Shown: piece by piece, positions 5,715 to 55,125 of the stretch
Numbering within the stretch: the first letter of the stretch is position 1
Layout: each line of letters starts with the position of its first letter
From: Escherichia phage vB_EcoM-ZQ3
DNA: 64,000 nt
Strand: one strand, 5' to 3'
Sequence record: MW630116.1
Notes under the pieces: model-generated
What the model saw: only the letters and a program-made list of their open reading frames with translations
The model's database searches: none
Told to the model about the DNA's origin: nothing
Translations under genes and position numbers: made by a program

Positions 5715-7163
5715 TTAAGCTGTAGGAAGTTCAACCCATGCACCGTCTTTGCGAACATAGAATTTACCGTCTGAAGGAGCATCTTCAATATATCCAGCTT
5801 CCTTAAGAGTTTGGATTTCAGCTTCTGCGGCGGCCAAATCAGTTTCAAGAGTAGCAATTCTAGAAGTTAAACCATTAATTGTCGTATCGTGACTTTTAAC
5901 TGTAGGCAATATACCACGTTCTTCAACAGTCGAACCATTTGGGTTGGTGCCGTTTATAAGAGTATTTAATGTGTTTACAGAACCCTTAATCCCTGTGGTA
6001 TTAGTCCCAACATCAGTTTGAATGTTCTGAATGTCATTACTCATCTCACCGATAGATCCTTCAAGCGCTCGAGTACGATAAAGCAAAGAGCCGGCTGGTT
6101 CCGGTTTCCCACCTGAAGCGTCAACACCAACTACGTTATTTAACCATGACACATTAAAACGCAATCCTGACGAAGAATCAGAGCCGACAACAGTGTTCAA
6201 TGCTCCGATAGCATCAGTATTGAGTTTAATACGTCCTTGGATTGTAGTAGGCAAATCATCGGTGCCAATGGCAGTTTCTACTGTAGTCAAACGAGGTTTA
6301 ATACCACCTGATTGATTGAGCTCAAGATTAATGTCGTTTATTGCTGAACTATTCGCATTAGTTGTAGTAATAATAGAAGTCGTATTAGGATACCCAATAG
6401 ACTGTTTAATGCCATCTAAGTCAGCATTTTGACGCGACAAAGTTAAATCAATACCGGAAAGACGACTAAATACTGGAGTAGTGAAAGAAGTGCGAGGTCC
6501 CATTTCTTCGCGTAAGTGTTCGACTTCATTAGTTAAAGAGCCGACGTCAGAATCAGCAAATTTAGTTTCTAGATCAGTTAATCGAACACCGTGGTCAACA
6601 ATCACGGAGCTATTAGTCATAATACGGCGTTTCATACCAGTGCTATCATTTCCTGGAGTAGGAACCCCATTAATATCTTGACCAGTATATTGTCCTAATT
6701 CATTTTTAATCCAAAGCAGGTCGTTACGAACGGTTCTATAAACTGAATCTGTTTCCTGATTATAAACACCAATATCATCAGTATTCGCATCAATATGTTC
6801 ATTCAAATCATTCAATTCACTAGCATGGGTTTGAACTGTGACTTTAATGACATCAATATCTTGGGTGTTCTGACCAATCTGTGCAAGTGCTTCGACGTCC
6901 CCGGAAACATCTAAAATACCTTGAATAACTTTTATATCTTCATTGGCTGTATTCAAAGAAGATGCTATAGTTTTAATATTAGTATCTAACGCTTCTACGT
7001 TACGTTGAACTTCAACAATAGGACGGTTCATTACACCTTCAGAACCGTATTTTGTATCAGCACCGGTAATTTCTTCGTCGTTTTTAATCCATTCAATACG
7101 ACTCTGACCCGCGTCTGGCGGGCCGTCAACATATGGTAAATCTACCAGAGTTATATCAGCCAT
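5715..7163 (-). CDS. wac: Fibritin (whisker protein, wac)
   Basis: 482 aa coiled-coil protein; conserved N-terminus and C-terminal foldon-like GYIEDAPSDGKFYVRKDGAWVEL. Confidence 0.88.
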   Translation of the reverse strand: MADITLVDLPYVDGPPDAGQSRIEWIKNDEEITGADTKYGSEGVMNRPIVEVQRNVEALDTNIKTIASSLNTANEDIKVIQGILDVSGDVEALAQIGQNTQDIDVIKVTVQTHASELNDLNEHIDANTDDIGVYNQETDSVYRTVRNDLLWIKNELGQYTGQDINGVPTPGNDSTGMKRRIMTNSSVIVDHGVRLTDLETKFADSDVGSLTNEVEHLREEMGPRTSFTTPVFSRLSGIDLTLSRQNADLDGIKQSIGYPNTTSIITTTNANSSAINDINLELNQSGGIKPRLTTVETAIGTDDLPTTIQGRIKLNTDAIGALNTVVGSDSSSGLRFNVSWLNNVVGVDASGGKPEPAGSLLYRTRALEGSIGEMSNDIQNIQTDVGTNTTGIKGSVNTLNTLINGTNPNGSTVEERGILPTVKSHDTTINGLTSRIATLETDLAAAEAEIQTLKEAGYIEDAPSDGKFYVRKDGAWVELPTA

Positions 7164-8746
7164 TATTTTACCTTAATAATATAGTTTAAAGAAATATTCC
7201 ATGGACGAGTTTCATTTCCAATTAATTCTGGACGATTCATGGTATATTTAGAGTTACGCTGAGACGCTGGATCAATTTCATATCCTTCGTTAGTAAAATA
7301 TGAACGGTTATCCCAGTCAAGTCCTTTACGAGTACCAACAAAGTTTGAACGACGAGTATTACCAAATGCACCGGAATCATTGTGTTCGCCAAAACCACCA
7401 GCATGTTTATGATATGACATCTGTTGTTTTTGCACTTCACCGACATATCCACCAGTACAACCAACTCCTAAACGAGGTTTACCAAATTGGTCATTACCAT
7501 TAACATTAGGGTTAGTTAAATGTGTACCACGACCTGAGCCGCGAACAAATAATCCACGCATATCAGGCAAGCCCGGGTTAGAAGAGCTACCACCATATCG
7601 TGTCCCAATTCTGGAAGCATATACCGGACATTCTGAAGCAGAAACGGTCCCACCGTGACAGAAGCGCCAGTCAGAACTCGGTAAACTATCTGCAGCCCAC
7701 ATTGTAATAGAGCCAACAGGAAGAATTCGGTCTAATTCATTTTGAGTCACAATACGATTGCCTTGAATATAACCACCAGTCATATTGACATTACCAGTTA
7801 TATTAGCTCCACCAGAACCAACCGTCAACGTATTATTAATGCGAAGCGTGCCGTTAATAGTTTGTCCACCTCGTTGGTGGATAACATCAGCATTCCAAGC
7901 AAGGGCAGAAGAACCATCACCACCTGATTGGCTACCAGCTTGTGTAGTTAAACGAACAACTCCACGTAAAGAAGTTGTAGCCCCACGCCCGTTTAATGTT
8001 GCGCCTGTCACTACAGCTGAAGAGTTGTTACTATTTACTTCAGTCTGTGTCCCTAGTTTAACGACGCCTTTATTAGTTTCTGATGCTACTGAATTCATAA
8101 AGGTATAAGGTGAAATTGCATAGCCTTCACGCAGGGTGCCTTGTTGTGCTTGAGCAACTGTAGCCAAACGAACAACACCTGTAATAGATTCGGTGGCGTC
8201 ACTATTATTTGGAGCAATTTGTGAAATAAGTTTAATTGCTAATTGTTGCGTTTTTAACGGAGTCATTGCCGTTGTATCGTCAGAACCAGCTAATGCCGCA
8301 GCAGAAGTTGAAATTTTAATTACACCATTTGTTGCTTCTGTTGACACTTTTGTCTGAAATACATTGTCTATTTTTTGATTCAATTTAAGCGGAGTAATTG
8401 ATGCATCGTCAATAGCTCCGGTTACTGCTTCATCTTCAGTAGCATAACGAGTTAAACCATATTGTGTTTCGGTTGCATTAGGATATTGTAGACGAGCATT
8501 CAGTGTTGCCGGAGTAACAGCTTTACTATTATCTAATCCATCAATAACTTCTTGTGGAGTAGCTATTTGAATAATTCCTGGTGTAGTAGTTGTTGCTTCC
8601 GGTACGCCATTAACACCTGAAGGAGAAATAGCAGCTAATGCGGCTTGGACATTAGTGACTGTATCTGGAAAATTCGACCCCGTAGGGTCGAATTCAACGT
8701 AAACGGATTCGTTTGAAACGTGTTGGTATGTATTGTTATTACTCAT
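7163..8746 (-). CDS. 12: Short tail fibre protein gp12
   Basis: 527 aa; T4 gp12-like including the conserved C-terminal receptor-binding region. Confidence 0.9.
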
Positions 8747-9402
8747 GAGGCTCTCACAAAGTGGTAGAAAACGGTAGGAGTATCATGGTTATCAAGAGTA
8801 ACCGTTTGGGCACCCAATAAATTCCATGTTCCGTATCCGGATTTTGCTTCAGACAAAATTTCTTGCGAAATTGTTACACCAAACGAAGCATATGTTGGCA
8901 ACACATGACGTTGGTTATCTAAATATGTCACCTGAAGTTTATTACCTTCAGACGGATGGTCTTTATAAGAAGAAATAGCGATTTGATTAGCAATGGCTTC
9001 TTGTAAAGCTATACGAACTTGTGCCGTTAATTCGTTATCAGTCATACCGATTGTTGCTTTAACAGCAAGTCCAAATACGTTAATAACGACTGGCGTTCCA
9101 GTGTCCAAAGTATCGTCGAGAACATCACCAGAAAAAGTCCAATAATCAACTTGTGCTGTACCTTCAGGCGATATGCCTGAAGTGTTTGTGACAACAGTAC
9201 CAATATCGGCTCGTGCCATATTATGGACATCATTTATTGCAGATTCTACGTTAGCATCATAAAAACCGCGAGCTAACTGAGAAATAGTTACGGAACCTAC
9301 AGCTTGGTTGTTTAAAACATCAATTTGAGCTGGGTTTTTTCTGTAATTCAAAAAATCAGCATGACGGGAAATAACTCCCGCCTTTGTATTAAGTACAGTC
9401 AT
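8743..9402 (-). CDS. 11: Baseplate wedge protein gp11
   Basis: T4 gp11-like; start placed at the ATG giving [12 protein letters not shown] (TAATG overlap with gene 10 stop); track ORF extends upstream to a non-ATG codon. Confidence 0.82.
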
Positions 9403-11207
9403 TATGCAATCCTTACCCAACGGTATACAGTTATAGATGGCTGAATATTAGTTATAGAACGCGCTGGAACATGAGATCCATTAGTCTTTGCATAGTCTTC
9501 ACGATATTTAGTGTAAATAGGACCTTCTTCATCTGGGTCATATTGGCAACCGCCTATAATTACTGTACCATTATCATCAGAAATAAGAACCTTTTCGTCG
9601 GTTTGTGTAGCTGGTAAATCAGCATTTTCTAATGTGATGGTTGTTACACCAACGGTACCACCTGCGGTATGAGTAGGGTTACCATTGACGTCAAGGTCAT
9701 TATTATTTAATGCAAAATTAGGATCCGACGCGTCGTCATTCCAACCTGCTAATACTTTGCCTTGTCCCCAAATTTTCCACGAACCAAAACCTAAATAAGT
9801 TGCCGGATTATTAGGGTTAACCGCATTTTCGTAAATAGTCCCAACAGGATAAATTGTATCAAATATTGCTGAGATAGTCGAGAATTCACGTTCATACTTA
9901 GGAACAGGTTCTACATTAGGCCATCCAATTTTATCGAAATCGGTTAATGCAACGTCACCAGTAATTTCAACGTTAGACCCTTGAGAAACATATTTCTCAT
10001 CAGCGACATCAAGGATTTCTTCCATTTCAAGAAGAGTTCCTAAATCGTTATTAAACCATGTGATGGTAATAATGTCTTGGTCTTCAAATTGACGGTCAAA
10101 CAGAATTGCGCTAGGGATATTATCAGTATATTCAATCGCATAATCTGTGTACGATTGAGTCCATGTCCCACCGAGATTAGCGCATGACTCTTCAGAATCG
10201 GCATCCACACCTTCGCAACGGAAAATAGGAGTTCCAACAGTACCAGCTAATTCTTGGAGAATACCGTTGAAGCGAACTTCTAACGAATTAGGGTTAGGTG
10301 GTTCCGTAGGATTAATACCAAATGCTGTAAATGGAATAGACCGGAACGTACTCAAATCAGTGACGTAAATACTTCCATCAATAGACTTTTTAGCAGTCAA
10401 TTTACTATCTAAAATGCGAACTTGGCGACGAGTATATGAACTACGCCACTGAGAAACACCATCTAGGAATGTCTCAATTTGTACAGTGTCCCCAACATTA
10501 CATGGTTGGCGTAATCTAATATTAAATCCATCAAGTGCAACCAGTTCACCAGGATTAGCGCCTGGAGAACCAAAATCACTATTATCACTGAATACATCAC
10601 CATAATACAATTCGTTGCCACGATGTTTTACACGAATGTTGTTAACGTTATAAGAAGTCCCGTTAAAAACATCCATGAAATCGGTCTGACCTTGTGTTTC
10701 AACCAGATATTCTCTACGAGCAACATTACTAATGTCAGAGCTAACTATTTTATCAATTTGTTTGTTCTTGATGTATTCCCAACGTCCAGGAGCACAATAA
10801 ACTAATTCTAAATCAGAGAACTGAACGTTAATTTCTACCGGAGATGAAGAACCTTTAATAGTGTCTCCGTTTGCCGGAATTAAAGTAACAGGGTTAATGT
10901 TCCAAGTTGCAAATACGTCACGAGCACGAATAACTTTATTATAGTCTGCAATTGTCCCTTTAGGAAGATTTACCGAAACTCGTCCAGAAGTAGTATTAAT
11001 TGCATAAGATTTACCCCAAGCGGCATTAAGATTAAGACCATCAGCCGCATCATAAGTCTTCCATGCGCCAGCGGAATAAGGAACTTCACCATCACCTAAT
11101 TCATAATAGATTTCGTCAAAGTTCTCATTTATTTTTTCACCACCTCGACGAAGGTAATCGCCTTGTCCGTCATCAACGACGTTACCAATTTTAATATTTT
11201 GTTTCAT
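9402..11207 (-). CDS. 10: Baseplate wedge protein gp10
   Basis: 601 aa; near-identical to T4 gp10. Confidence 0.9.
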
Positions 11208-12079
11208 TATTGAGCGACCCCAATTTTCTGAGTTGAGATAATTTTAACTGCTGAACGTAATCCAATAATATCAGATGTAATCGTCATAGTAGCAAAGTTG
11301 TTAATAATACTAAAGCTAATATTAGCAATCTCGTCGGTTTCATCTACATTACCAACTCGCATTACTGCAAATTCGGTAGAAAGAACTTCTGAGTTAATTG
11401 TATCTATTAGAATATTTATTTCGCATGTTTTTATTTTTCTACCGTCGGCGGATTGGCATGTAACAAGCAATTTAGCCATGTTATAATCCGTGCGATAAAA
11501 CAGAGGAATAGAAACTGTGTTTCCTGTAAGACTCCAAGTCCCATCGACAGGAGATTCTTTCTGCCCAAACATGCTATCAGTAGAATAATTCCATACTGAA
11601 GTTGGCCCATTAAGTTCAATACAACGAAGAACAACATGGGTATAAGGGGTGGAAATAACAAGATTATTAAGAACGCCTTTAATTGAACCATCGGTTACTT
11701 GGATACTTAAAGGATTGTTAACAGAAATAGACCCATTAGAGTTTATGAATTCTACAGAGTCACCTAATTCAGGACGGTCAATAATAACAATCACACCACC
11801 ATCAGAAGCATCAATATCATGCATGGTGCCTGGTTTAATAGGAGTTTGATAATCGACAGCCTTTCCTTTTTGATAATAGCCTGTGGCATGAATAGTTTGA
11901 CCTGTAGGTCCGGTTCCATCTGCTACAGCCATTTTACGTTGATCGCCAAATGCATTGTAAATAGCGTTGATATCGTCATTTATTTTATTACCACCGTCGA
12001 ATAAGATATCACCTGTTGAGGCATTACCAATTTCGCCGGTATCGATTAATTGTTTAGGAGTTTGCTTAAAAAATGCCAT
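11207..12079 (-). CDS. 9: Baseplate wedge protein gp9 (long tail fibre attachment)
   Basis: 290 aa; T4 gp9-like; synteny. Confidence 0.85.
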   Translation of the reverse strand: MAFFKQTPKQLIDTGEIGNASTGDILFDGGNKINDDINAIYNAFGDQRKMAVADGTGPTGQTIHATGYYQKGKAVDYQTPIKPGTMHDIDASDGGVIVIIDRPELGDSVEFINSNGSISVNNPLSIQVTDGSIKGVLNNLVISTPYTHVVLRCIELNGPTSVWNYSTDSMFGQKESPVDGTWSLTGNTVSIPLFYRTDYNMAKLLVTCQSADGRKIKTCEINILIDTINSEVLSTEFAVMRVGNVDETDEIANISFSIINNFATMTITSDIIGLRSAVKIISTQKIGVAQ

Positions 12080-25038: not shown

Positions 25039-25724
<686 letters not shown>

Positions 25725-25800: not shown

Positions 25801-26088
25801 ATGAAAACCTATAAAGAATTTATATCACCTGTTGCTAACGTTTCTACTCTGACCGAAGCAACCCTTACTTCCGAAGTTATTAAAGCAAATAAAGGACGTG
25901 AGGGTAAACCAATGATTAGTCTGGTTGACGGCGAAGAAGTAAAAGGTACTGTTTACTTAGGGGATGGATGGTCTGCTAAGAAAGATGGCGCTACTATTGT
26001 TATCTCTCCGGCTGAAGAGACTGCACTGTTTAAAGCTAAGCATATTTCTGTAGCTCAGCTTAAAATTGTTGCAAAAACTCTTCTGTAA
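25801..26088 (+). CDS. Internal protein with capsid-targeting sequence (ipI position)
   Basis: N-terminal MKTYKEFI with L-x-E prohead-protease-type sites; 95 aa; follows 57B as ipI does in T4. Confidence 0.6.
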   Translation: MKTYKEFISPVANVSTLTEATLTSEVIKANKGREGKPMISLVDGEEVKGTVYLGDGWSAKKDGATIVISPAEETALFKAKHISVAQLKIVAKTLL

Positions 26089-26157
26089 GTAGTTTACATG
26101 CTGATAGGACTATGTTATAGTAGTCCTATCAAATCAACAACCAAACGGAAAAAACAA

Positions 26158-26421
26158 ATGAAAACGTATAAAGAATTTATCGCTGAATCTCAATCTTCTA
26201 CTCTGTCAGAGAACTACGAATCATTCTCTTACAACAACGACCATGCAATGTTCTACGACCGAAACATCGGTACTTATGTCCATGTGTGGGGTGTTAAAGA
26301 TGGTAACGTAGTTGTTAAGAAAAACTCTAAAGAAGGCAATGGTCGTGGCCAGGTAAAAATTACCAGCAAGAAAGCTATCCAAGCTTACGTCGATTATGTT
26401 AAACGCGAAGCTGGTATTTAA
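26158..26421 (+). CDS. Internal-protein-like gene with canonical capsid-targeting sequence MKTYKEFIAE
   Basis: 87 aa; own early-promoter cassette upstream; no T4 counterpart recognised. Confidence 0.55.
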   Translation: MKTYKEFIAESQSSTLSENYESFSYNNDHAMFYDRNIGTYVHVWGVKDGNVVVKKNSKEGNGRGQVKITSKKAIQAYVDYVKREAGI

Positions 26422-26483
26422 TAGTTTACATGATGATAGGACTATGTTATAGTAGTCCTATCAAAACATGAGAGGATAATAAA

Positions 26484-26669
26484 ATGAAACGCGCTGAACT
26501 GATTCGTAATGTTGCTGTAGTAATTGCTTCAATGGCTTTTAGTTTTTCGATGTTTGTAGGATTCATTTGTGGACTACTGACGACAACCGAAAACTCTATC
26601 TCATTGGTAGTGGCATTTCTAATCGGCTTAATCGCCATCGTTATGGATAAAATTGCAAAAGGTGAGTAA
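26484..26669 (+). CDS. Small hydrophobic (membrane) protein
   Basis: 61 aa, two hydrophobic helices; promoter cassette and GAGAGGA RBS upstream. Confidence 0.5.
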   Translation: MKRAELIRNVAVVIASMAFSFSMFVGFICGLLTTTENSISLVVAFLIGLIAIVMDKIAKGE

Positions 26670-26670
26670 A

Positions 26671-27033
26671 ATGAAATATCATGTATATGCTGATTTTGAA
26701 GCTAATCCTTCTAAAGACCCTGATTGTCGTTTGTTACGTGAACCGTTTGATTCAGCCACAGAAGCATGGCACTGGATTAAATCTAAATCACCCGGTTATA
26801 TGTTCTTTGAAGTAGTCGATGACAATGGTGCACTGCATCCAGCCCCTACGGAAACTATTAATTTCCTTCTGTTTGCTGGTTATGAATACTATCCTTATGG
26901 TGGTATCGACGACCTTTACGCTAAAGGTAAAACTGTCGAAGCTCTTCGTGAAATATATAAGAACGCTGAAGAAAATTTCGACTGGTACCATATTGTTAAT
27001 GCCCATACCTTTGAAGTGGTGGAACATTCATGA
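26671..27033 (+). CDS. Hypothetical protein
   Basis: ATG overlapping the upstream stop; 120 aa. Confidence 0.5.
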   Translation: MKYHVYADFEANPSKDPDCRLLREPFDSATEAWHWIKSKSPGYMFFEVVDDNGALHPAPTETINFLLFAGYEYYPYGGIDDLYAKGKTVEALREIYKNAEENFDWYHIVNAHTFEVVEHS

Positions 27034-27320
27034 TTCTTTATGCTAAAGTAAAATCTGTTGAGAATGGTTATGAAAGCGATCAGCAAGCAGCTAAAGCATT
27101 GGTCAATGATTACGGTATTTTGACTAACTTTGAAGTTGAAAAAGTTTACATCGACCGTTCATCTTCGCAGGTTAAATTACTCTGGGAAGACGGTAAATTT
27201 AATAGCGTGAATTTTGATTTCTTTATTGAAACAGAAAAAGGTCCTCTTGAATATGATATTTTCAAGAATCCTTTGAAATTACGTTGCATTGAATATAATT
27301 ACATTAATATGGTACGGTGA
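27030..27320 (+). CDS. Hypothetical protein
   Basis: 96 aa; ATGA overlap with the upstream gene. Confidence 0.45.
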   Translation: MILYAKVKSVENGYESDQQAAKALVNDYGILTNFEVEKVYIDRSSSQVKLLWEDGKFNSVNFDFFIETEKGPLEYDIFKNPLKLRCIEYNYINMVR

Positions 27321-27324
27321 GTAA

Positions 27325-27840
27325 ATGAATATTTGTTTAGGCAGTACAATTCCTAAGGGCTACGTAATTGATGTCACTACCTATGAAAATGATGGTGACA
27401 ACTATAAAACCAAAACATTGTTTGAAGTGGAAGAGCATGAGCTCCAACAGTTTAAATATCTCTTGAAGAAATTTAAGAGCCGTCATTCTAGCACTAAAGC
27501 CGAACGTTATTGCGGTAATACACCATTCAGTGATTGTTCGCTTTTAATCTATGAATACTTGGTTGAAGGACTGTTCTCAGACCAGCTTTATCCAGAATTC
27601 ATTAAAAAGGTCTTTGGTATCGAAGTTGACCTTGGTGACAAATCCGAAGAAGATGAAACACGTGTATTCGACCTATTCTTTGAGAGCGGAGATGAGATAT
27701 CTCAAGGACTTATTGATATTCTTGGCTATGCTTCTGAATACTATGATTACGATTTCTTGCGTGTAGTTGAACGTGTTGAATTCGCTTATATTGAAGAAGA
27801 AATTGTTTTGCCGACTGTTAAAATGATTGATTTGCTTTAA
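27325..27840 (+). CDS. Hypothetical acidic protein
   Basis: 171 aa; GTGAGTAA RBS-like sequence upstream. Confidence 0.5.
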   Translation: MNICLGSTIPKGYVIDVTTYENDGDNYKTKTLFEVEEHELQQFKYLLKKFKSRHSSTKAERYCGNTPFSDCSLLIYEYLVEGLFSDQLYPEFIKKVFGIEVDLGDKSEEDETRVFDLFFESGDEISQGLIDILGYASEYYDYDFLRVVERVEFAYIEEEIVLPTVKMIDLL

Positions 27841-27919
27841 GAATTATGTGTTATTATTAATTCATACCCTCTATTACCAAAGGTGCTCTAAAGTGCCTTT
27901 CATAATAGAAAGTTATTAA

Positions 27920-27994
27920 GGCCCTGTAGCTCAATGGGAGAGCTGTCAGCTCATAACTGATAGGTAGCTGGATCGAAACCAGCCAGGGTCACCA
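27920..27994 (+). tRNA. tRNA with CAU anticodon (Met, or Ile if lysidine-modified), CCA encoded
   Basis: Manual cloverleaf: acceptor GGCCCTG/CAGGGTC, D-stem GCTC/GAGC, anticodon loop CTCATAA, T-arm GCTGG-ATCGAAA-CCAGC, discriminator A, CCA. Confidence 0.8.
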
Positions 27995-28000
27995 AACAAA

Positions 28001-28072
28001 TGGTGCATCGTATAAAGGTTATTACGGGGAGCTGTTAACTCCTTTATCTTGGTTCGAGTCCAAGTGCGCCAG
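28001..28072 (+). tRNA. tRNA-Asn (GUU anticodon), no encoded CCA
   Basis: Acceptor TGGTGCA/TGCGCCA, anticodon stem GGGAG/CTCCT with loop CTGTTAA, T-arm CTTGG-TTCGAGT-CCAAG; 6 nt after the previous tRNA. Confidence 0.7.
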
Positions 28073-28117
28073 TAATTTAAACGAAGTAAATTAAGTGCTC
28101 TATCCAAATAATAAATA

Positions 28118-28136
28118 CTCCTATATTTTATAGGAG
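28118..28136 (+). promoter_or_regulatory. Hairpin sequestering the RBS of the downstream endonuclease gene
   Basis: Inverted repeat CTCCTATA-ttt-TATAGGAG; right arm is the SD 10 nt before the ATG at 28147. Confidence 0.5.
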
Positions 28137-28146
28137 ATAATTGGTA

Positions 28147-28812
28147 ATGAGCATTTGTAAACATTGTAATATGGAATTTGATATTTCTAATAAACCTAAA
28201 GGATGGATGGCTAACCACACTAGATGGTGTAAATCCAACCCTAAATTGGAATTGTATAAAGAAAGTTCTAAATCAGCCATTGCAGCAATGAATAAAGCAC
28301 GTATAGCTTCAGGTAATTTAAACCAGTATGTTGTATCTAAAAAGACTGGTGTCCCTGTAGTAATTTCGGAAGAGACTAGACAAAAATTGTCAGCCGCTTC
28401 ATTAGGTAGAGAACACTCTGAGGAATCTAGAATAAAAATATCTAATGCTCGGAAAAAATGGTTGAATGAAAACCCTGATAAACATCCTTGGAAGAAAAAT
28501 ACAAAATTTAAATCTGTGCCTTGTGAATTTTTGAAATCTAAATTAATAGAAAACGGAATTTCATTTATTGAAGAATACCAACCGGTTAAAAACCGAGCGT
28601 ATTGCACGGATATTGCTTTAATAGATAAAAAGATTATTATTGAAGTTAATGGAAACCAACATTACTCCAATCCTAAGAAAAAGATTTTGGCCCCTTATTA
28701 TAAAGAACGCCATGATATTATAAAATCATTAGGATGGGAAATATATGAACTTCATTATGCTGAAGTTTATAAAGAAGATATTGTAAATAATTTAATTGCC
28801 TCTATAGTGTAA
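28147..28812 (+). CDS. Putative free-standing homing endonuclease (N-terminal Cys/His motif, NUMOD3-like repeats, C-terminal Vsr/DUF559-like nuclease motif)
   Basis: CKHCN...HTRWC; ETRQKLSAASLGREHSEESRIKISNARKKW; C-terminal D..IIIEVNGNQHY..RHD...LGWEI; sits between tRNA genes and overlaps tRNA-Arg by 15 nt; no GIY-YIG motif. Confidence 0.6.
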   Translation: MSICKHCNMEFDISNKPKGWMANHTRWCKSNPKLELYKESSKSAIAAMNKARIASGNLNQYVVSKKTGVPVVISEETRQKLSAASLGREHSEESRIKISNARKKWLNENPDKHPWKKNTKFKSVPCEFLKSKLIENGISFIEEYQPVKNRAYCTDIALIDKKIIIEVNGNQHYSNPKKKILAPYYKERHDIIKSLGWEIYELHYAEVYKEDIVNNLIASIV

Positions 28813-28873
28813 TGGATAGCATATAATCGTTCTAAGGTTAATGGTGAGAGTTCAAATCTTTCTAGAGGCACCA
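28798..28873 (+). tRNA. tRNA-Arg (UCU anticodon), CCA encoded
   Basis: Acceptor GCCTCTA/TAGAGGC, D-stem GTGT/GCAT, anticodon loop GTTCTAA, T-arm GAGAG-TTCAAAT-CTTTC, discriminator A plus CCA. Confidence 0.8.
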
Positions 28874-29236: not shown

Positions 29237-29546
29237 GAAGCCGGGTCGCTACCGGCAAGACGTCGGACTGATGTTCCCTGAGTAAGGATTGGTCTTAATA
29301 AATCTTTACGATTTGTTAATACCCCCTTACATCACAGCAGAAACGGCGCACAGAATTATCGATTCGAGGAAATATCTTTGCCGTAAGCCGAGTAGCGTTT
29401 TTGACGGAACGTTCGGATATGGTCGAGATATGGCCTTTTAAAAATATTGAGTAGCGTCAACTGCTTAATAACCGGGTTCGAATCCCGGCGTTTCGTACAA
29501 ACACTTACCTAGTAGGTGGAAACCCGACAAGGTTGCCGCAAGGCAT

Positions 29547-29619: not shown

Positions 29620-30240
29620 ATGTATACTTTTAATGAATTTTTAGCCGAAACGGAAGTAATCACCGAAGCCGGCGTACGTATGACAAAAGAGAAATGGCAA
29701 GCTGCTTACGATGCTATTTCTGGTACAAAAACTAGTACAGAGTTTTTCAAAAACGTTCAAGCCATGTACGGTATCGACACTTCTAGCCAAAAAGAATATT
29801 ACAGAGCTTCTAAAGCATTCAAAGATATTGTTAGTGGTGGTGTTTCTGCTAAATCGGGTTCGCCTAAAGTAAAACCTGCTCCTACCATTCCTAAACCTGC
29901 GACCCCTAAAGCAAAACCTGAGCCTAAGCCTGAAGTAAAAGCAACTCCTAAAGCTCCTGCTCTTAAGTTTGATACTTCTAGCCTGGAAAAAAAATATAAA
30001 CAACTATCTTCGCTTGTTCGTGATATTGAATCCGATACATCTTCACTCGTTCGTGAATTCAATATTCTTCGTAATGGCCAACATATCAACAACCTTGATA
30101 CTCCAGACCTTTATCGTCTTTATTTGACTATCGAAGGTTTGAAGTATACTCAACCACTTCACGATGCGATTAAAGAAAAACTTCGTCAGGCAGGTCGTTT
30201 GGCTGCTGACGCTGCTCAGTATGCAAAAACTCGTAAGTAA
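29620..30240 (+). CDS. Internal-protein-like gene with capsid-targeting-type N-terminus and Pro/Lys-rich linker
   Basis: MYTFNEFLAETE resembles the capsid-targeting peptide; low-complexity PKPATPKAKPEPKPEVKATPKAP region; 206 aa. Confidence 0.55.
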   Translation: MYTFNEFLAETEVITEAGVRMTKEKWQAAYDAISGTKTSTEFFKNVQAMYGIDTSSQKEYYRASKAFKDIVSGGVSAKSGSPKVKPAPTIPKPATPKAKPEPKPEVKATPKAPALKFDTSSLEKKYKQLSSLVRDIESDTSSLVREFNILRNGQHINNLDTPDLYRLYLTIEGLKYTQPLHDAIKEKLRQAGRLAADAAQYAKTRK

Positions 30241-31211: not shown

Positions 31212-31805
31212 ATGAACACACTGAAGAAACTTGTTGAATTCATCCGCACTAAACTGGGTACTGCTATGGCTAAAAATCTGACTGTCGAAGAACAGTATAA
31301 CGCAGCTGCAGATAAGTTGATTACCCAAATCAAAGAACTAAAAACGGCTTCTGTTAAATCTATTAATGAAGAAAAACGTATTCGCGAACTTGTTATTGAA
31401 AAGAATAAGCAAGCCGCTTCTAAGGAACGTGAAATTCGTAAGCTCCTGGCTGAAGGACAAGATGTTACCATGCATGCTAAGCTTGGTCTTCTGTATCGTC
31501 GAACTGCCGAACAACTTAATACAAAAGCTGACGGGTACGCTGCTATGCGAATTGAAATTGCTCGTAAGGTGGTTGAACTTGACGATGCTCGTCAGAATCT
31601 GGCAATCAAACTCGAATACATTCGTGAAACTCGAGCAGCTAATGCCCTTGGTATCTCTACGGCTGATGATGTAATTGAAATCGCTGCACTAACTAAGGTT
31701 GATATCGAAGACACTCTGACTCGTGTTGAAACGTTCAATGGCACACCAGCTGGTGTCGAAACCACTTCTGCTGATGTACAAGAATATATTAACTCTTTGA
31801 AATAA
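31212..31805 (+). CDS. Hypothetical coiled-coil protein
   Basis: 197 aa; heptad-rich; promoter cassette upstream. Confidence 0.5.
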
Positions 31806-31813
31806 AATAATAC

Positions 31814-31835
31814 GGAGGACTCCGGTCCTCCTTTT
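31814..31835 (+). terminator. Rho-independent terminator
   Basis: GGAGGAC-TCCG-GTCCTCC then TTTT. Confidence 0.55.
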
Positions 31836-31854
31836 GGATAATAAAGGAGTTAAC

Positions 31855-32277
31855 ATGCGAAACCAAAATAATGATATTGACTCAATGTTCGAAGAGTTCC
31901 GAAATAAGGTAAATCCACCTACGTCTTTAGTTGATTCATTACGATATGTTGCAACTGGACGTAAATGGTACTGGTCGTCTTCTTATGAGACAACTGAATA
32001 TGCAAATAACCGAAAATCTTTATTAGCCCCAGGTATTATGATTCATGATATCGGAGCTATTGCTAAACTAGTTGCGGACCATGATATTAGATTCACTGAT
32101 TTCGTTGCTCCTACGTGGTCTGTTTGTTGTTTAAACACTGAATGGGACTATATCAGTGAACGCTCTGAAGATTATTATGGTTTTAGAGATAAGCTCTTAA
32201 GGTCTAACATGTTTTATATCGATACTGAAGTTCTAGTCGATAATAAAATATTACTTTACGTTAATCGTCGATTCTGA
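31855..32277 (+). CDS. Hypothetical protein
   Basis: 140 aa from ATG after AGGAG. Confidence 0.5.
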   Translation: MRNQNNDIDSMFEEFRNKVNPPTSLVDSLRYVATGRKWYWSSSYETTEYANNRKSLLAPGIMIHDIGAIAKLVADHDIRFTDFVAPTWSVCCLNTEWDYISERSEDYYGFRDKLLRSNMFYIDTEVLVDNKILLYVNRRF

Positions 32278-32417
32278 AACTATGTATGAAGGCAAGCCTT
32301 TGCTTAAAAGAGTTGATGCTTTAAGTGCTATTGATGCGCTTTATGAAACCATGGTTGTTAGTCCTAATTTCACTAACAATTTAATCCTTGAGCAATTTAT
32401 TATGGAATGTAGAGAAT

Positions 32418-32813
32418 ATGTCAAAGCCAACCCTATACATGCCAATTAAGCCCTGGGCATACGAATACAAACGTAAATTAATCCCAAACGAAGTACTATT
32501 TGGCCCTATTTTAGCTTTAGCGTTTTTAATCTTTATGATTATAGGAGCTGTTTTAGATTCCAATAAAGTTATATCGTCTGATGCAGCGTTTTCATTAATG
32601 TTCGTCGCACCACTTATTGTACCATTTTTATTAATGCCTATTAATTGGGCAGGATATTGGCACCAAGGCCGTCATCACAGAGCTCGAGTTCGTGAGTGGA
32701 AAGTTCAGTGCGCAAAAGCCCAAGCTCAGTATGATGAAGCTGTTAAAAAGTATGAATACGAAGAAGCTATGGAATTCGTTAAGGAAATAAGATGCAAAAG
32801 CCTCAACTCTTAA
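32418..32813 (+). CDS. Predicted membrane protein
   Basis: 132 aa with two hydrophobic segments. Confidence 0.5.
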   Translation: MSKPTLYMPIKPWAYEYKRKLIPNEVLFGPILALAFLIFMIIGAVLDSNKVISSDAAFSLMFVAPLIVPFLLMPINWAGYWHQGRHHRARVREWKVQCAKAQAQYDEAVKKYEYEEAMEFVKEIRCKSLNS

Positions 32814-33043
32814 CCGTATGGCCGTCTCTTGGTGAGAACATTCTAATTTTTATTATGAGTATTGGCATGGGATTTGCCTTTGGATTAGTTGGATTTCTTA
32901 TTGACGGCGTTGTGTTAGGATTTATAGGGAACACTGGTGGATTCACAGACCAATGGCAGGACCTAAGATACACCCAAGCCTTTGCATCTATCGCATCATT
33001 TTGTACTGTAAGTCTATTTTTACTACGATTTTATAAACCATAA
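32792..33043 (+). CDS. Predicted membrane protein
   Basis: 83 aa, hydrophobic; overlaps the upstream gene. Confidence 0.45.
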   Translation: MQKPQLLTVWPSLGENILIFIMSIGMGFAFGLVGFLIDGVVLGFIGNTGGFTDQWQDLRYTQAFASIASFCTVSLFLLRFYKP

Positions 33044-33148
33044 CAAGAAAAATAAAAAGGTTTACGCTTCTCAAATGATTAGTTATAATGAACTCCTAGC
33101 TAGACGTGAAAATGAAACAATAGAAAACTTTATTAAGGAATGTAGAAA

Positions 33149-33454
33149 ATGAGTAAGATTATTGAAATTAAAGTACCAGAGTTTAATGATGCTAAATCCG
33201 CTTCAGATGCAATTTATAAACTTCTGAATCAAGCTGAACGTATCGAAGAAGAAGCAACAAAGATCGCAGACCAATATGCCGTATCATTTTCTGTAGGTGA
33301 TTATGGTAGTGGTCGTACTTATTATCCTAAGGGTGAAATTGTATCCCAGTGGATGAAAGATGAAATTGAAAATAATGGTGGTGATGTTAAACGTGAAGGT
33401 AATGGTTACGTTATTACTGAAGGTGCTTGGGTTTCGTCTTCTTCGATGTGCTAA
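33149..33454 (+). CDS. Small protein, member 1 of a tandem paralogous triplet (C-terminal GAWVSSSSMC)
   Basis: 101 aa; shares the helical N-terminus and C-terminal G-W-[VI]-[SA]-S-S-x-x-C tail with the next two ORFs. Confidence 0.55.
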   Translation: MSKIIEIKVPEFNDAKSASDAIYKLLNQAERIEEEATKIADQYAVSFSVGDYGSGRTYYPKGEIVSQWMKDEIENNGGDVKREGNGYVITEGAWVSSSSMC

Positions 33455-36559: not shown

Positions 36560-36652
36560 TGATTAACAAAACATATTGGTCTTAATATAGACGATGGCAA
36601 CGAAGGTATTTCATACTATTCAGTAGATTGGACAGGATGTCCATCCTACTTA

Positions 36653-36964
36653 GTGAAACATATTTGCCAAGAATTTAAAATCGACCAGCCAGCAGGTATT
36701 ATCGTGAACAGATACATTAATGGATATCAACCTATCGATGAAGTAATACGAACAACTCAAGCTGAGCTTGAAAAGTTTTTCAATAAGTGCCAATGGATAA
36801 CAGGATGGATTATATTTGTACCGTCTATATGGTTTTTCAGTACTAAGGTGAGTTCTTTCGGTTTTGTTGATATTATTGCTATCTTATTAGCATCTAGTAT
36901 CATAAGTGTTGTTGGTGGCATCATTGGCGGCGGTACCGCCGCCATCATTATTAAATCTTATTAA
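36653..36964 (+). CDS. Predicted membrane protein with C-terminal glycine zipper; start codon uncertain
   Basis: ORF has no in-frame ATG (GTG at 36653); C-terminal VVGGIIGGGTAAIII. Confidence 0.35.
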   Translation: MKHICQEFKIDQPAGIIVNRYINGYQPIDEVIRTTQAELEKFFNKCQWITGWIIFVPSIWFFSTKVSSFGFVDIIAILLASSIISVVGGIIGGGTAAIIIKSY

Positions 36965-37048
36965 AAGTAGTTTACAAGAACATAAAGCCAAGATAAAGGC
37001 CAAGAATAATGAAGTTGAACGTTTTATTACCGAATGCAGGAATTTGAG

Positions 37049-37285
37049 ATGAGTATAGCAATTTACATTAAATCAGAATCATGTGATAGTTATCTGTACA
37101 CATACGATAAAGACGTGTCAGAAGAAAAAATCAAAGACGATCTTAATATGGACCTTGATATGTTCTGTCCTATTGCAGATTACAAACTTGCGGTCTCTAA
37201 TAGTGAAAGTCCATCTAAAGAAACGCGCATTGAAGAATTTATGTCCGAATTAATGGCTAAATCATGGGACCGAGATGATGAGTAA
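37049..37285 (+). CDS. Hypothetical acidic protein
   Basis: 78 aa; ATG overlaps the stop of a short upstream reading frame. Confidence 0.45.
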   Translation: MSIAIYIKSESCDSYLYTYDKDVSEEKIKDDLNMDLDMFCPIADYKLAVSNSESPSKETRIEEFMSELMAKSWDRDDE

Positions 37286-37732
37286 GAAAAATAAAGTGAA
37301 AGAACTATCAGCCGGTATTATTTTCCTTACCGAAGATAAAGAATTATTCATGGGGCGTGTAACTGGTTCTCGTCCTAAAGGTTCTTTAGCTCATCGGTGG
37401 GATATTCCTAAAGGACGTGTCGAGCCCGCCGAATCTCCTATTGAAGCCGCTATTCGCGAATGCGAAGAAGAAACTGGGTTTACACAATATGACCTGCCTT
37501 CCTGAAAGACCTAGGTGAACATCATTACTCAGACAATAAGAATATTCATCTGTTCCTATATACCATCCCTGTAGAGCACGAGCAATTCAGAAACAGTGTT
37601 TGTAATTCCTATCATACATTCCCAGACGGACGACAGATTCCTGAATTTGATGCATTCGCTTTAATTAAACCTTCTCAATGGGAATATGTAATGGGCAAAT
37701 CATTATATAAGGTGCTCACTACCCTCCTATAA
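37275..37732 (+). pseudogene. nudE: Nudix hydrolase (nudE / e.1 homolog) split by a -1 frameshift
   Basis: Frame A 37275..37505 carries the Nudix box GRVEPAESPIEAAIRECEEETG then stops; the homolog continues in the -1 frame 37499..37732 (LKDLGEHHYSD...); summed length about 153 aa, like T4 NudE. Confidence 0.6.
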
Positions 37733-37740
37733 GTAATAAA

Positions 37741-37764
37741 TACCTCCTATAAACGTGGGAGGTA
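37741..37764 (+). promoter_or_regulatory. Hairpin spanning the RBS of gene e with an internal late-promoter-like element
   Basis: TACCTCC-tataaacgtg-GGAGGTA; right arm is the e SD; loop holds TATAAACG (6/8 to TATAAATA); matches the arrangement described for T4 gene e. Confidence 0.5.
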
Positions 37765-37766
37765 TT

Positions 37767-38255
37767 ATGAATATATTTGAAATGCTTCGTAATGACGAAG
37801 GTCTTAGACTGACTTTATACAAAGACACCGAAGGCTTTTGGACGATTGGCATAGGCCATTTAGTAACAAAGAACCCGTCTTTAGCCGTAGCTAAAGCTGA
37901 ACTTGACAGAATGATCGGTCGTAAATGCAACGGTACAATTACCCTTGATGAGGCTGAAAAGCTATTTAATGAAGACGTTGATAAAGCCGTTCGCGGAATC
38001 TTGGGTAATGCTAAACTTAAACCGGTATATGATTCTTTAGATGCAGTTCGTCGATGTGCATTGGTCAATATGGTCTTCCAAATGGGTGTAGCAGGCGTCG
38101 CAGGTTTTACTAATTCTCTTCGTATGCTTCAACAGAAACGTTGGGATGAAGCGGCAGTAAATCTAGCCCAATCTAAATGGTATCGTCAGACACCTAATCG
38201 CGCGAAACGCGTAATCTCAACATTTAAAACAGGAACTTGGAAAGCGTATATATGA
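37767..38255 (+). CDS. e: Endolysin (T4 lysozyme, gene e)
   Basis: 162 aa; [32 protein letters not shown]... near-identical to T4 lysozyme. Confidence 0.95.
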
Positions 38256-40885: not shown

Positions 40886-41109
40886 TGGCTAAATTGATTA
40901 TAGAAGGGTCTGAAGATGTTTTAAAATGTTTTGCCGCCTGGTTTAGTTGCTCAGGCGAGCAATCATTCATTGAAGCATTTAGAATGGGTGATATTACTGG
41001 AAACTATCCGGCAACTGATATCACTGTACGTGGATATGGTATTAATGAGCCTATCCAATTGGTCGAATATGACCTTGCCACTGATGAGGAAATTCCTTAT
41101 GTCGATTGA
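40885..41109 (+). CDS. Hypothetical protein
   Basis: 74 aa. Confidence 0.45.
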   Translation: MAKLIIEGSEDVLKCFAAWFSCSGEQSFIEAFRMGDITGNYPATDITVRGYGINEPIQLVEYDLATDEEIPYVD

Positions 41110-41365
41110 AGATATTAAAGGCTACAAGCCACATACCGACGATAAAATCGGTAAAGTGAACGCTATTAAAGATGCAGAAGTCCGTCTTGGATTGTTGTTT
41201 GATGCTCTGATTGAAGAAGCATATATCTTGAAAGAAAATGAAACAGAGCAACAAACCAAAGAAGATATGGATGCAGTACAGGCTCTTAAGTATGCTAAGC
41301 AACATCTAAAAGAAGCCAGCATGTGGGCCTGTCGTGCAGTATTTCGACCTGAGGAAAAATACTAA
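41099..41365 (+). CDS. Hypothetical protein
   Basis: 88 aa from ATG overlapping the upstream stop. Confidence 0.45.
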
Positions 41366-54537: not shown

Positions 54538-54793
54538 AGTGTACGGGTATGACTCTACTATTCATAAATGCATTTATTGCGATAATGCGAAACGATTGCT
54601 GACTGTTAAGAAACAGCCATTCGAATTCATTAATGTTATGCCAGAAAAAGGTGTGTTCGATGATGAGAAAATTGCTGAGCTTCTGGTTAAGCTTGGACGT
54701 GAATCACAAGTCGGATTGACTATGCCTCAAGTGTTTGCTCCTGACGGAAGTCACATTGGTGGATTTGACCAACTGCGAGAATATTTTAAATGA
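54530..54793 (+). CDS. nrdC: Thioredoxin/glutaredoxin NrdC
   Basis: 87 aa from MFKVYGYDSTIHKCIYC; active-site CIYC; T4 NrdC-like. Confidence 0.85.
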   Translation: MFKVYGYDSTIHKCIYCDNAKRLLTVKKQPFEFINVMPEKGVFDDEKIAELLVKLGRESQVGLTMPQVFAPDGSHIGGFDQLREYFK

Positions 54794-55125
54794 ACAATAT
54801 TGATTTCACCAAAGCATATAAATTTGTAGCAACTCTTCTCGGCCCTGACGCTCCTACTAAGCTTGAAGTTTTAAATTCGATTCCGACTTCATTGGTTCGA
54901 GATGCTGAAATATGGACATGGGATGACCCGGCTGTTTGTGAAGACCTGTACATTCTGATGAATGACATGATGGTTAAAAAGCCTGAAACAATGGTTACTA
55001 TTACTGTTGAAGAATATAATCGCCTACAAGCCATCGAAGAGCTTCTGTGGAACATTGAATCTGCTTTGCCATCTGGGCTAGAATCCTGGATTGATTATGA
55101 AGAGCTTAATAAACTCCGCGGTTAA
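54790..55125 (+). CDS. Hypothetical protein
   Basis: 111 aa; ATGA overlap with nrdC. Confidence 0.5.
   Translation: MNNIDFTKAYKFVATLLGPDAPTKLEVLNSIPTSLVRDAEIWTWDDPAVCEDLYILMNDMMVKKPETMVTITVEEYNRLQAIEELLWNIESALPSGLESWIDYEELNKLRG

Follow-up and report, generated by a model that had tools for sequence, protein, structure and literature searches.

The window, as we call the whole 64,000-nucleotide stretch of Escherichia phage vB_EcoM-ZQ3 (MW630116.1) analyzed here, carries an ordinary RB69-type nudE, whose reading frame is broken in the record because a CCC run has lost one C, at 37493-37494. Nothing repairs the frame, and the sequence as written would yield no more than an N-terminal fragment of 76 residues, with the Nudix box kept, over half of the Nudix fold missing and the 3′ half of the gene left untranslated. 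In this form, nudE is a null allele. The missing C is best explained as an indel error in the consensus of a locally weak stretch, a reading that we hold to be slightly likelier than a genuine null allele.

Identity and genomic setting of the broken gene

The DNA of the window belongs to an RB69-like member of the genus Mosigvirus, among the T4-type phages. A 601-base piece around the nudE lesion matches 171 phage records with a top identity of 99.0%, and a 25-kb piece of the window is at most ~96-97% identical to any phage record. The gene order e.2 - ORF130c - nudE - e (lysozyme) - ORF127c - denV is common to RB69 and 18 other relatives, with the lysozyme gene located as follows.

37767..38255, + strand: lysozyme gene e, intact, directly 3′ of nudE (RB69 protein comparison)

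Because of this synteny, with the lysozyme gene directly downstream, the broken gene is identified as e.1/nudE, and both sequence and position assign it as the orthologue of RB69 NudE and T4 NudE.1 (gene e.1). The original prediction of a T4 nudE homologue is thereby borne out, and the RB69 and Mizar records likewise annotate their nudE as similar to T4 nudE. Between nudE and gene e, the Shine-Dalgarno sequence of gene e (ATG 37767) is base-paired in a strong hairpin at 37739-37766 (AUACCUCC ... GGGAGGUAU, -16.3 kcal/mol, z = -5). It resembles the known translational control of T4 gene e, where the ribosome-binding site is hidden in early transcripts that read through.

RB69 NudE (AAP76031.1) and T4 NudE.1 resemble the window gene in their position, upstream of e and downstream of e.2/ORF130c, and in their Nudix box. 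The window gene differs from both in the absence of one C, which ends the open reading frame after 76 codons, and in a Gly52Ala exchange inside the Nudix box. Once repaired, its product is identical to the one that an intact allele encodes in another, independent dataset. The T4 protein is described, in a preprint, as a T-even Nudix hydrolase that acts on FAD, Ap3A, ADP-ribose, NAD and NAD-capped RNA (bioRxiv 10.1101/2024.04.04.588121).

The two halves of nudE and the Nudix box

The coding information for NudE is distributed over two overlapping frames, the first of which contains the catalytic motif.

37275..37505, + strand: nudE 5′ part, frame A, 76 codons and TGA (ORF translation; tblastn with RB69 NudE 1-73)
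37413..37481, + strand: Nudix box G47-F69, GRVEPAESPIEAAIRECEEETGF, intact (GX5EX7REUXEEXGU; frame A translation and alignment)
37429..37429, + strand: C, against G in 18 of 19 relatives (exchange Gly52Ala within the Nudix box; alignment)
37493..37732, + strand: nudE 3′ part, -1 frame, 79 codons and TAA (100% identical to RB69 NudE 74-152)

When RB69 NudE is compared with the window by tblastn, its residues 1-73 align at 97% identity in one frame and residues 74-152 at 100% in the other; the two-frame layout is no chance pattern of open frames. The split itself had been predicted and is confirmed by the open frame 37275-37505 and the -1 frame that runs to 37732. The frame A product reads MMSKKNKV...GRVEPAESPIEAAIRECEEETGFTQYDLPS and stops after ...FTQYDLPS, in agreement with the N-terminal half, intact Nudix box and ...QYDLPS end that had been described for it. 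The terminal LPS is out of frame, being encoded downstream of the lesion, and the wild type reads PAFL there. The -1 frame reads PAFLKDLGEHHYSDNK...KVLTTLL through to 37732 and has a TGA directly 5′ of the nudE 3′ part, at 37490-37492. Repair of the lesion yields a protein of 152 residues from the first ATG or 151 from the second, slightly short of the ~153 residues at which the sum of the two halves had been put.

All positions of the Nudix motif are occupied in frame A (G47-RVEPA-E53-SPIEAAI-R61 E62 C63 E64 E65 E66 T67 G68 F69), and the 76-residue product matches the NUDIX profile (Pfam PF00293) with E = 6e-14. The match spans profile positions 4-59 of 134, compared with 4-99 for the intact RB69 NudE of 152 residues. 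By this Pfam coverage, no single polypeptide of the window nudE comprises the full Nudix fold domain of ~130 residues. Likewise, instead of one uninterrupted reading frame of 151-152 codons, the window gene stops at codon 76, and the frame is intact in 19 of 19 relatives.

One might imagine that nudE consists by nature of two pieces, translated separately, whose products come together as a Nudix enzyme. Beyond the two open frames, nothing speaks for such an arrangement, which we consider extremely improbable. A scan of the 3′ frame for ATG, GTG and TTG finds none until the last 13 codons ahead of its stop, the 3′ piece alone matches no Pfam family, and no relative has a split nudE. On the strength of the start-codon scan and the Pfam coverage, the two-piece enzyme was rejected.

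The exchange at 37429 looked, in a first view with three relatives, like a second lesion unique to the window. This idea was rejected as well, since the intact nudE allele nearest to that of the window also encodes Ala52, and Gly52Ala is regarded as a natural variant.

Position and uniqueness of the lesion

Alignment with relatives, begun with RB69, pEB20 and AV116 and extended to 9 and then 19 genomes, places the frame break precisely.

37493..37494, + strand: lesion, CC where all relatives have CCC, one C lost (alignment, 19 relatives)

The site reads GACCTG in the window and GACCCTG in the relatives. The junction had been predicted at 37497-37505, and the alignment moves the lesion a few bases 5′ of it.

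The deletion is not found in any other sequence that was searched. With a 61-nt query over the junction, none of the 234 matching phage records reaches 99% identity, and all 15 of those listed have one extra base (98.4%). Similarly, among the records listed for the longer query, 40 of 40 span 602 nt compared with the 601 nt of the window. The exact deletion allele has no match in IMG/VR, in the GTDB genomes (one genome per species) or in the JGI metagenomes, and the wild-type nudE junction allele is present in IMG/VR. At the protein level, the exact truncated NudE (with either of two possible starts) and the truncated products of the neighboring genes e.3 and e.5 are all without an entry in the protein-to-contig index. 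Among the loci listed that encode an identical 228-residue neighboring protein, 10 of 10 hold an intact NUDIX gene of 151-152 residues.

The nudE allele nearest to that of the window lies on L025, a contig assembled from run SRR19137807, and is intact. Window positions 36956-38239 are identical to L025 save for the one missing C, and the repaired window NudE equals the L025 protein, Ala52 included.

Absence of recoding signals at the junction

A programmed -1 ribosomal frameshift, or slippage during transcription, could in principle yield full-length NudE from the two frames, and the halves do abut and together make a complete NudE. This is the only point in favor of recoding, to which we assign a negligible probability. 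Productive frameshifting would have to occur between the TGA of the -1 frame (37490-37492) and the TGA of frame A (37503-37505). The zone in question, 37493-37505, reads CCTGCCTTCCTGA and contains no X_XXY_YYZ motif, as had been anticipated from the junction, which was noted to be no classic slippery heptamer; none is found in register there. The sole heptamer of this shape, GGGTTTA at 37476, has the wrong register and lies 5′ of the -1-frame stop. Downstream, the 80 nt at 37503-37582 fold with a minimum free energy of -7.7 kcal/mol (z = +0.92), and 162 of 200 shuffled sequences fold as well or better. Nor does the site offer an A/T run on which the polymerase might slip. The bases flanking the site are the same in relatives with a single-frame NudE, and the two-frame layout occurs in 0 of the 19 aligned relatives and 0 of the 234 records.

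Well-known frameshift sites are those of dnaX (A_AAA_AAG, -1) and prfB (CUU_UGA_C, +1). Like the window nudE, they have two overlapping frames that jointly encode one protein. The window nudE differs from them in having no slippery motif, no stimulator and no conservation, with an overlap zone of only 13 nt. Programmed frameshifting was ruled out for lack of a slippery motif, of downstream structure and of two-frame relatives, and transcriptional slippage was rejected as well. The original prediction had favored a deletion (pseudogene) or an assembly error over programmed frameshifting, and this ranking is backed by the unique loss of a C, by the missing heptamer and structure and by the single-frame relatives.

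A cluster of broken accessory genes around nudE

Comparison of all RB69 proteins with the window, along with a search for every indel at which all relatives disagree with it, reveals that nudE is not the only gene affected. Within 5.3 kb, the four accessory genes e.5, e.3, e.2 and nudE are broken by window-unique run-length changes of 1-2 bases. The indels of the three neighboring genes, of the same type and likewise unique, were not part of the original prediction; they bear on the choice between an error and a real mutation in nudE.

32245..32248, + strand: e.5 (Y06P family), A6 of relatives changed to A4 (-2), stop at 140 of 198-200 residues (alignment)
33010..33011, + strand: e.3, one A gained (TGTAGTC to TGTAAGTC), stop at 83 of 119 residues (alignment)
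36582..36583, + strand: e.2, one T gained near the start, stop at codon 8 (alignment)
36953..36955, + strand: e.2, one A gained (AA to AAA), window-unique, second shift of frame, C-terminal ~34 residues lost (alignment)

Three further window-unique indels of 1-2 nt are located in non-coding spacers, at 29509, 30881 and 31187; the gene for a 206-residue protein at 29620-30240, beside the first of them, is intact.

The backgrounds of these changes are strikingly clean. Window positions 31752-32907 equal the intact allele of a second contig, L028, except for the missing AA in e.5, and positions 32981-33279 equal it except for the added A in e.3. Over 36881-38239, the window differs from L025 only by the added A in e.2 and the missing C in nudE. 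The matching tracts of the two contigs come from independent datasets, and over the 2.8 kb that they cover the window has four unique coding indels without a single substitution. With substitutions set at their upper bound, such an outcome still has P <= 0.013 if indels arise at no more than 0.3 of the substitution rate. Ordinary divergence would not be expected to look like this, and a process specific to indels is indicated.

The excess of indels is also apparent on a larger scale. The 29-37.5 kb region has 7 unique indels for 23 unique substitutions, compared with 0 for 22 in the 38-46.5 kb next to it (Fisher P = 0.015). Premature stops affect ~2% of gene instances among 19 relatives and 14 genes, versus 4 of the 14 genes in the window (P ~1.5e-4). 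Relatives do show occasional premature stops in this hyperplastic region, for example in Mizar e.2 and ST0 ORF137. Most indels of the cluster occur in very short runs (1 to 2, 2 to 3 or 3 to 2 bases), and one of the 65 homopolymers of at least 6 nt in the window is altered. Coding sequence contains 4-5 of the 7 window-unique indels, versus ~6 expected, a count that is uninformative on whether the indels avoid coding sequence.

The early frame shift in e.2 stands somewhat apart from the others. In phage Mizar (PV714129.1), an independent isolate, e.2 likewise ends at codon 8, and the annotated gene begins at an internal start that corresponds to the GTG at 36653 of the window. The shared codon-8 stop and the internal start suggest that Mizar probably carries the same additional T, which would make this change a real polymorphism.

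Integrity of the rest of the window

Elsewhere in the 64 kb, comparison with all RB69 proteins finds no other conserved gene broken; the structural genes tested, gp7 and three tRNAs are intact. Every full-length RB69 match outside the stretch lies in a single frame, and the only other two-frame matches are those of 55.3 and nrdC.5. These split tblastn matches were rejected as frameshifts, given that HY126, TU01 and moskry have shorter or longer versions of the C-termini. The differences are messy, multi-indel divergence of C-termini that vary between lineages, not clean window-unique indels. A comparable pattern is seen at 54790-54990, in the region of ORF092c (49% amino acid identity), with many small compensating indels relative to RB69, HY126 and TU01; it reflects divergence and not a clean frameshift.

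Several other regions of the window deserve mention in their own right. A divergent mosaic patch at 26000-28000 contains 20-67 window-unique substitutions per kb, versus 1-7 from 31 kb on, and small unique indels are found at 26421-26473, between ipI and tRNA.4. The tRNA genes at 27920-28873 (tRNA-Met, tRNA-Asn and tRNA-Arg) are intact, and the tRNA-Asn is shared with HY126 and absent in RB69. The spacer between the Asn and Arg tRNAs measures 725 nt; at this place AV110 has a T5orf172/MUG113-type gene, between genes for 171-residue and 114-residue proteins. On the minus strand, at 5715-12079, the host-recognition genes gp9, gp10, gp11, gp12 and wac reach only 64-80% amino acid identity to RB69, and the neck and terminase genes beside gp9-gp12/wac reach 98-100%. 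The exact gp12 protein has no entry in the protein-to-contig index. Homologues of 57B and vs.4, at 25269-25721 and 41099-41362, are both intact; in related loci, 57B and vs.4 match the Pfam families Acb1 (anti-CBASS) and Acb2/Tad1 hairpin.

Consensus error or genuine null allele

Two readings of the missing C carry most of the weight. According to the first, it is one member of a local cluster of run-length errors at ~29.5-37.5 kb, such as might arise in a poorly covered or unpolished stretch. According to the second, the phage has very recently lost nudE function through a frameshift, caused by replication slippage in a run of three C, in a dispensable gene, as part of a real decay or inactivation of e.5, e.3, e.2 and nudE. 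We regard this second reading as a serious contender, although a somewhat less probable one.

The case for a genuine mutation begins with the function of the gene. T4 NudE.1 is auxiliary and phage lacking it are viable, as stated in the preprint cited above, and a nudE null allele should therefore be viable too. The preprint, citing Xu et al. 2002, reports that phage with the catalytically dead NudE.1 E64,65Q lyse ~15 min late with an unchanged burst size (bioRxiv 10.1101/2024.04.04.588121). Frame-breaking indels in the window all fall in accessory genes and none in an essential one, and they spare the long homopolymers, where error-prone platforms fail first. The early additional T in e.2 is apparently present in the independent isolate Mizar, and for this reason a real frameshift polymorphism probably exists here; the occasional premature stops of relatives in the hyperplastic region point in the same direction.

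These observations also weigh against a technical origin, in that no conserved gene is broken outside the stretch and all four genes hit are accessory, and in that indels placed mostly in short runs do not follow the length-dependent profile usual for homopolymer miscalls.

Nevertheless, several features are difficult to reconcile with a genuine null allele. The four indels come with no substitutions on 2.8 kb of sequence that otherwise matches intact alleles exactly, and unique indels are in excess only in one 8-kb stretch, with dozens of other accessory genes of the window untouched. The deletion allele is absent from every other assembly searched, and the 3′ half of nudE displays no decay, at 100% amino acid identity to RB69. 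Null alleles that arise by homopolymer slippage in accessory genes of T4-like hyperplastic regions are alike in kind: there, too, a run in a dispensable gene is longer or shorter by 1-2 nt. The window differs from them in that four genes within 5.3 kb are hit together, on backgrounds otherwise identical to intact alleles.

The indel-only pattern on tracts identical to intact alleles makes a consensus error slightly likelier than a recent null allele, and we infer that the indel cluster is technical. Against this inference, a uniform scatter of errors over 64 kb would seldom produce such a cluster (P ~0.002), so that a local problem of quality has to be assumed. A real, linked and recent inactivation of e.5, e.3, e.2 and the NAD- and ADP-ribose-cleaving NudE in one Mosigvirus lineage is, by our estimate, quite unlikely. 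If true, it might have been caused by a host defense that senses one of the products, or by NudE activity that is harmful on some host, and the window would then represent a natural escape genotype.

Implications for annotation and biology

Whether it stems from a consensus error or from a routine null allele, the broken nudE is nothing new in kind, being a known dispensable accessory gene of T-even phages. Its biological weight is small, and the finding is of practical use for gene annotation and for quality control. The proper label is a frameshifted nudE with a note, and neither a novel short Nudix protein nor a recoding event. The assembly at ~29.5-37.5 kb deserves re-examination because of its four unique frame-breaking indels. 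Should the lesions prove real, the isolate would offer a nudE-null strain of natural origin, defective also in e.2, e.3 and e.5, and would be useful for assessing what NudE contributes to NAD-cap and ADP-ribose metabolism and to the timing of lysis.
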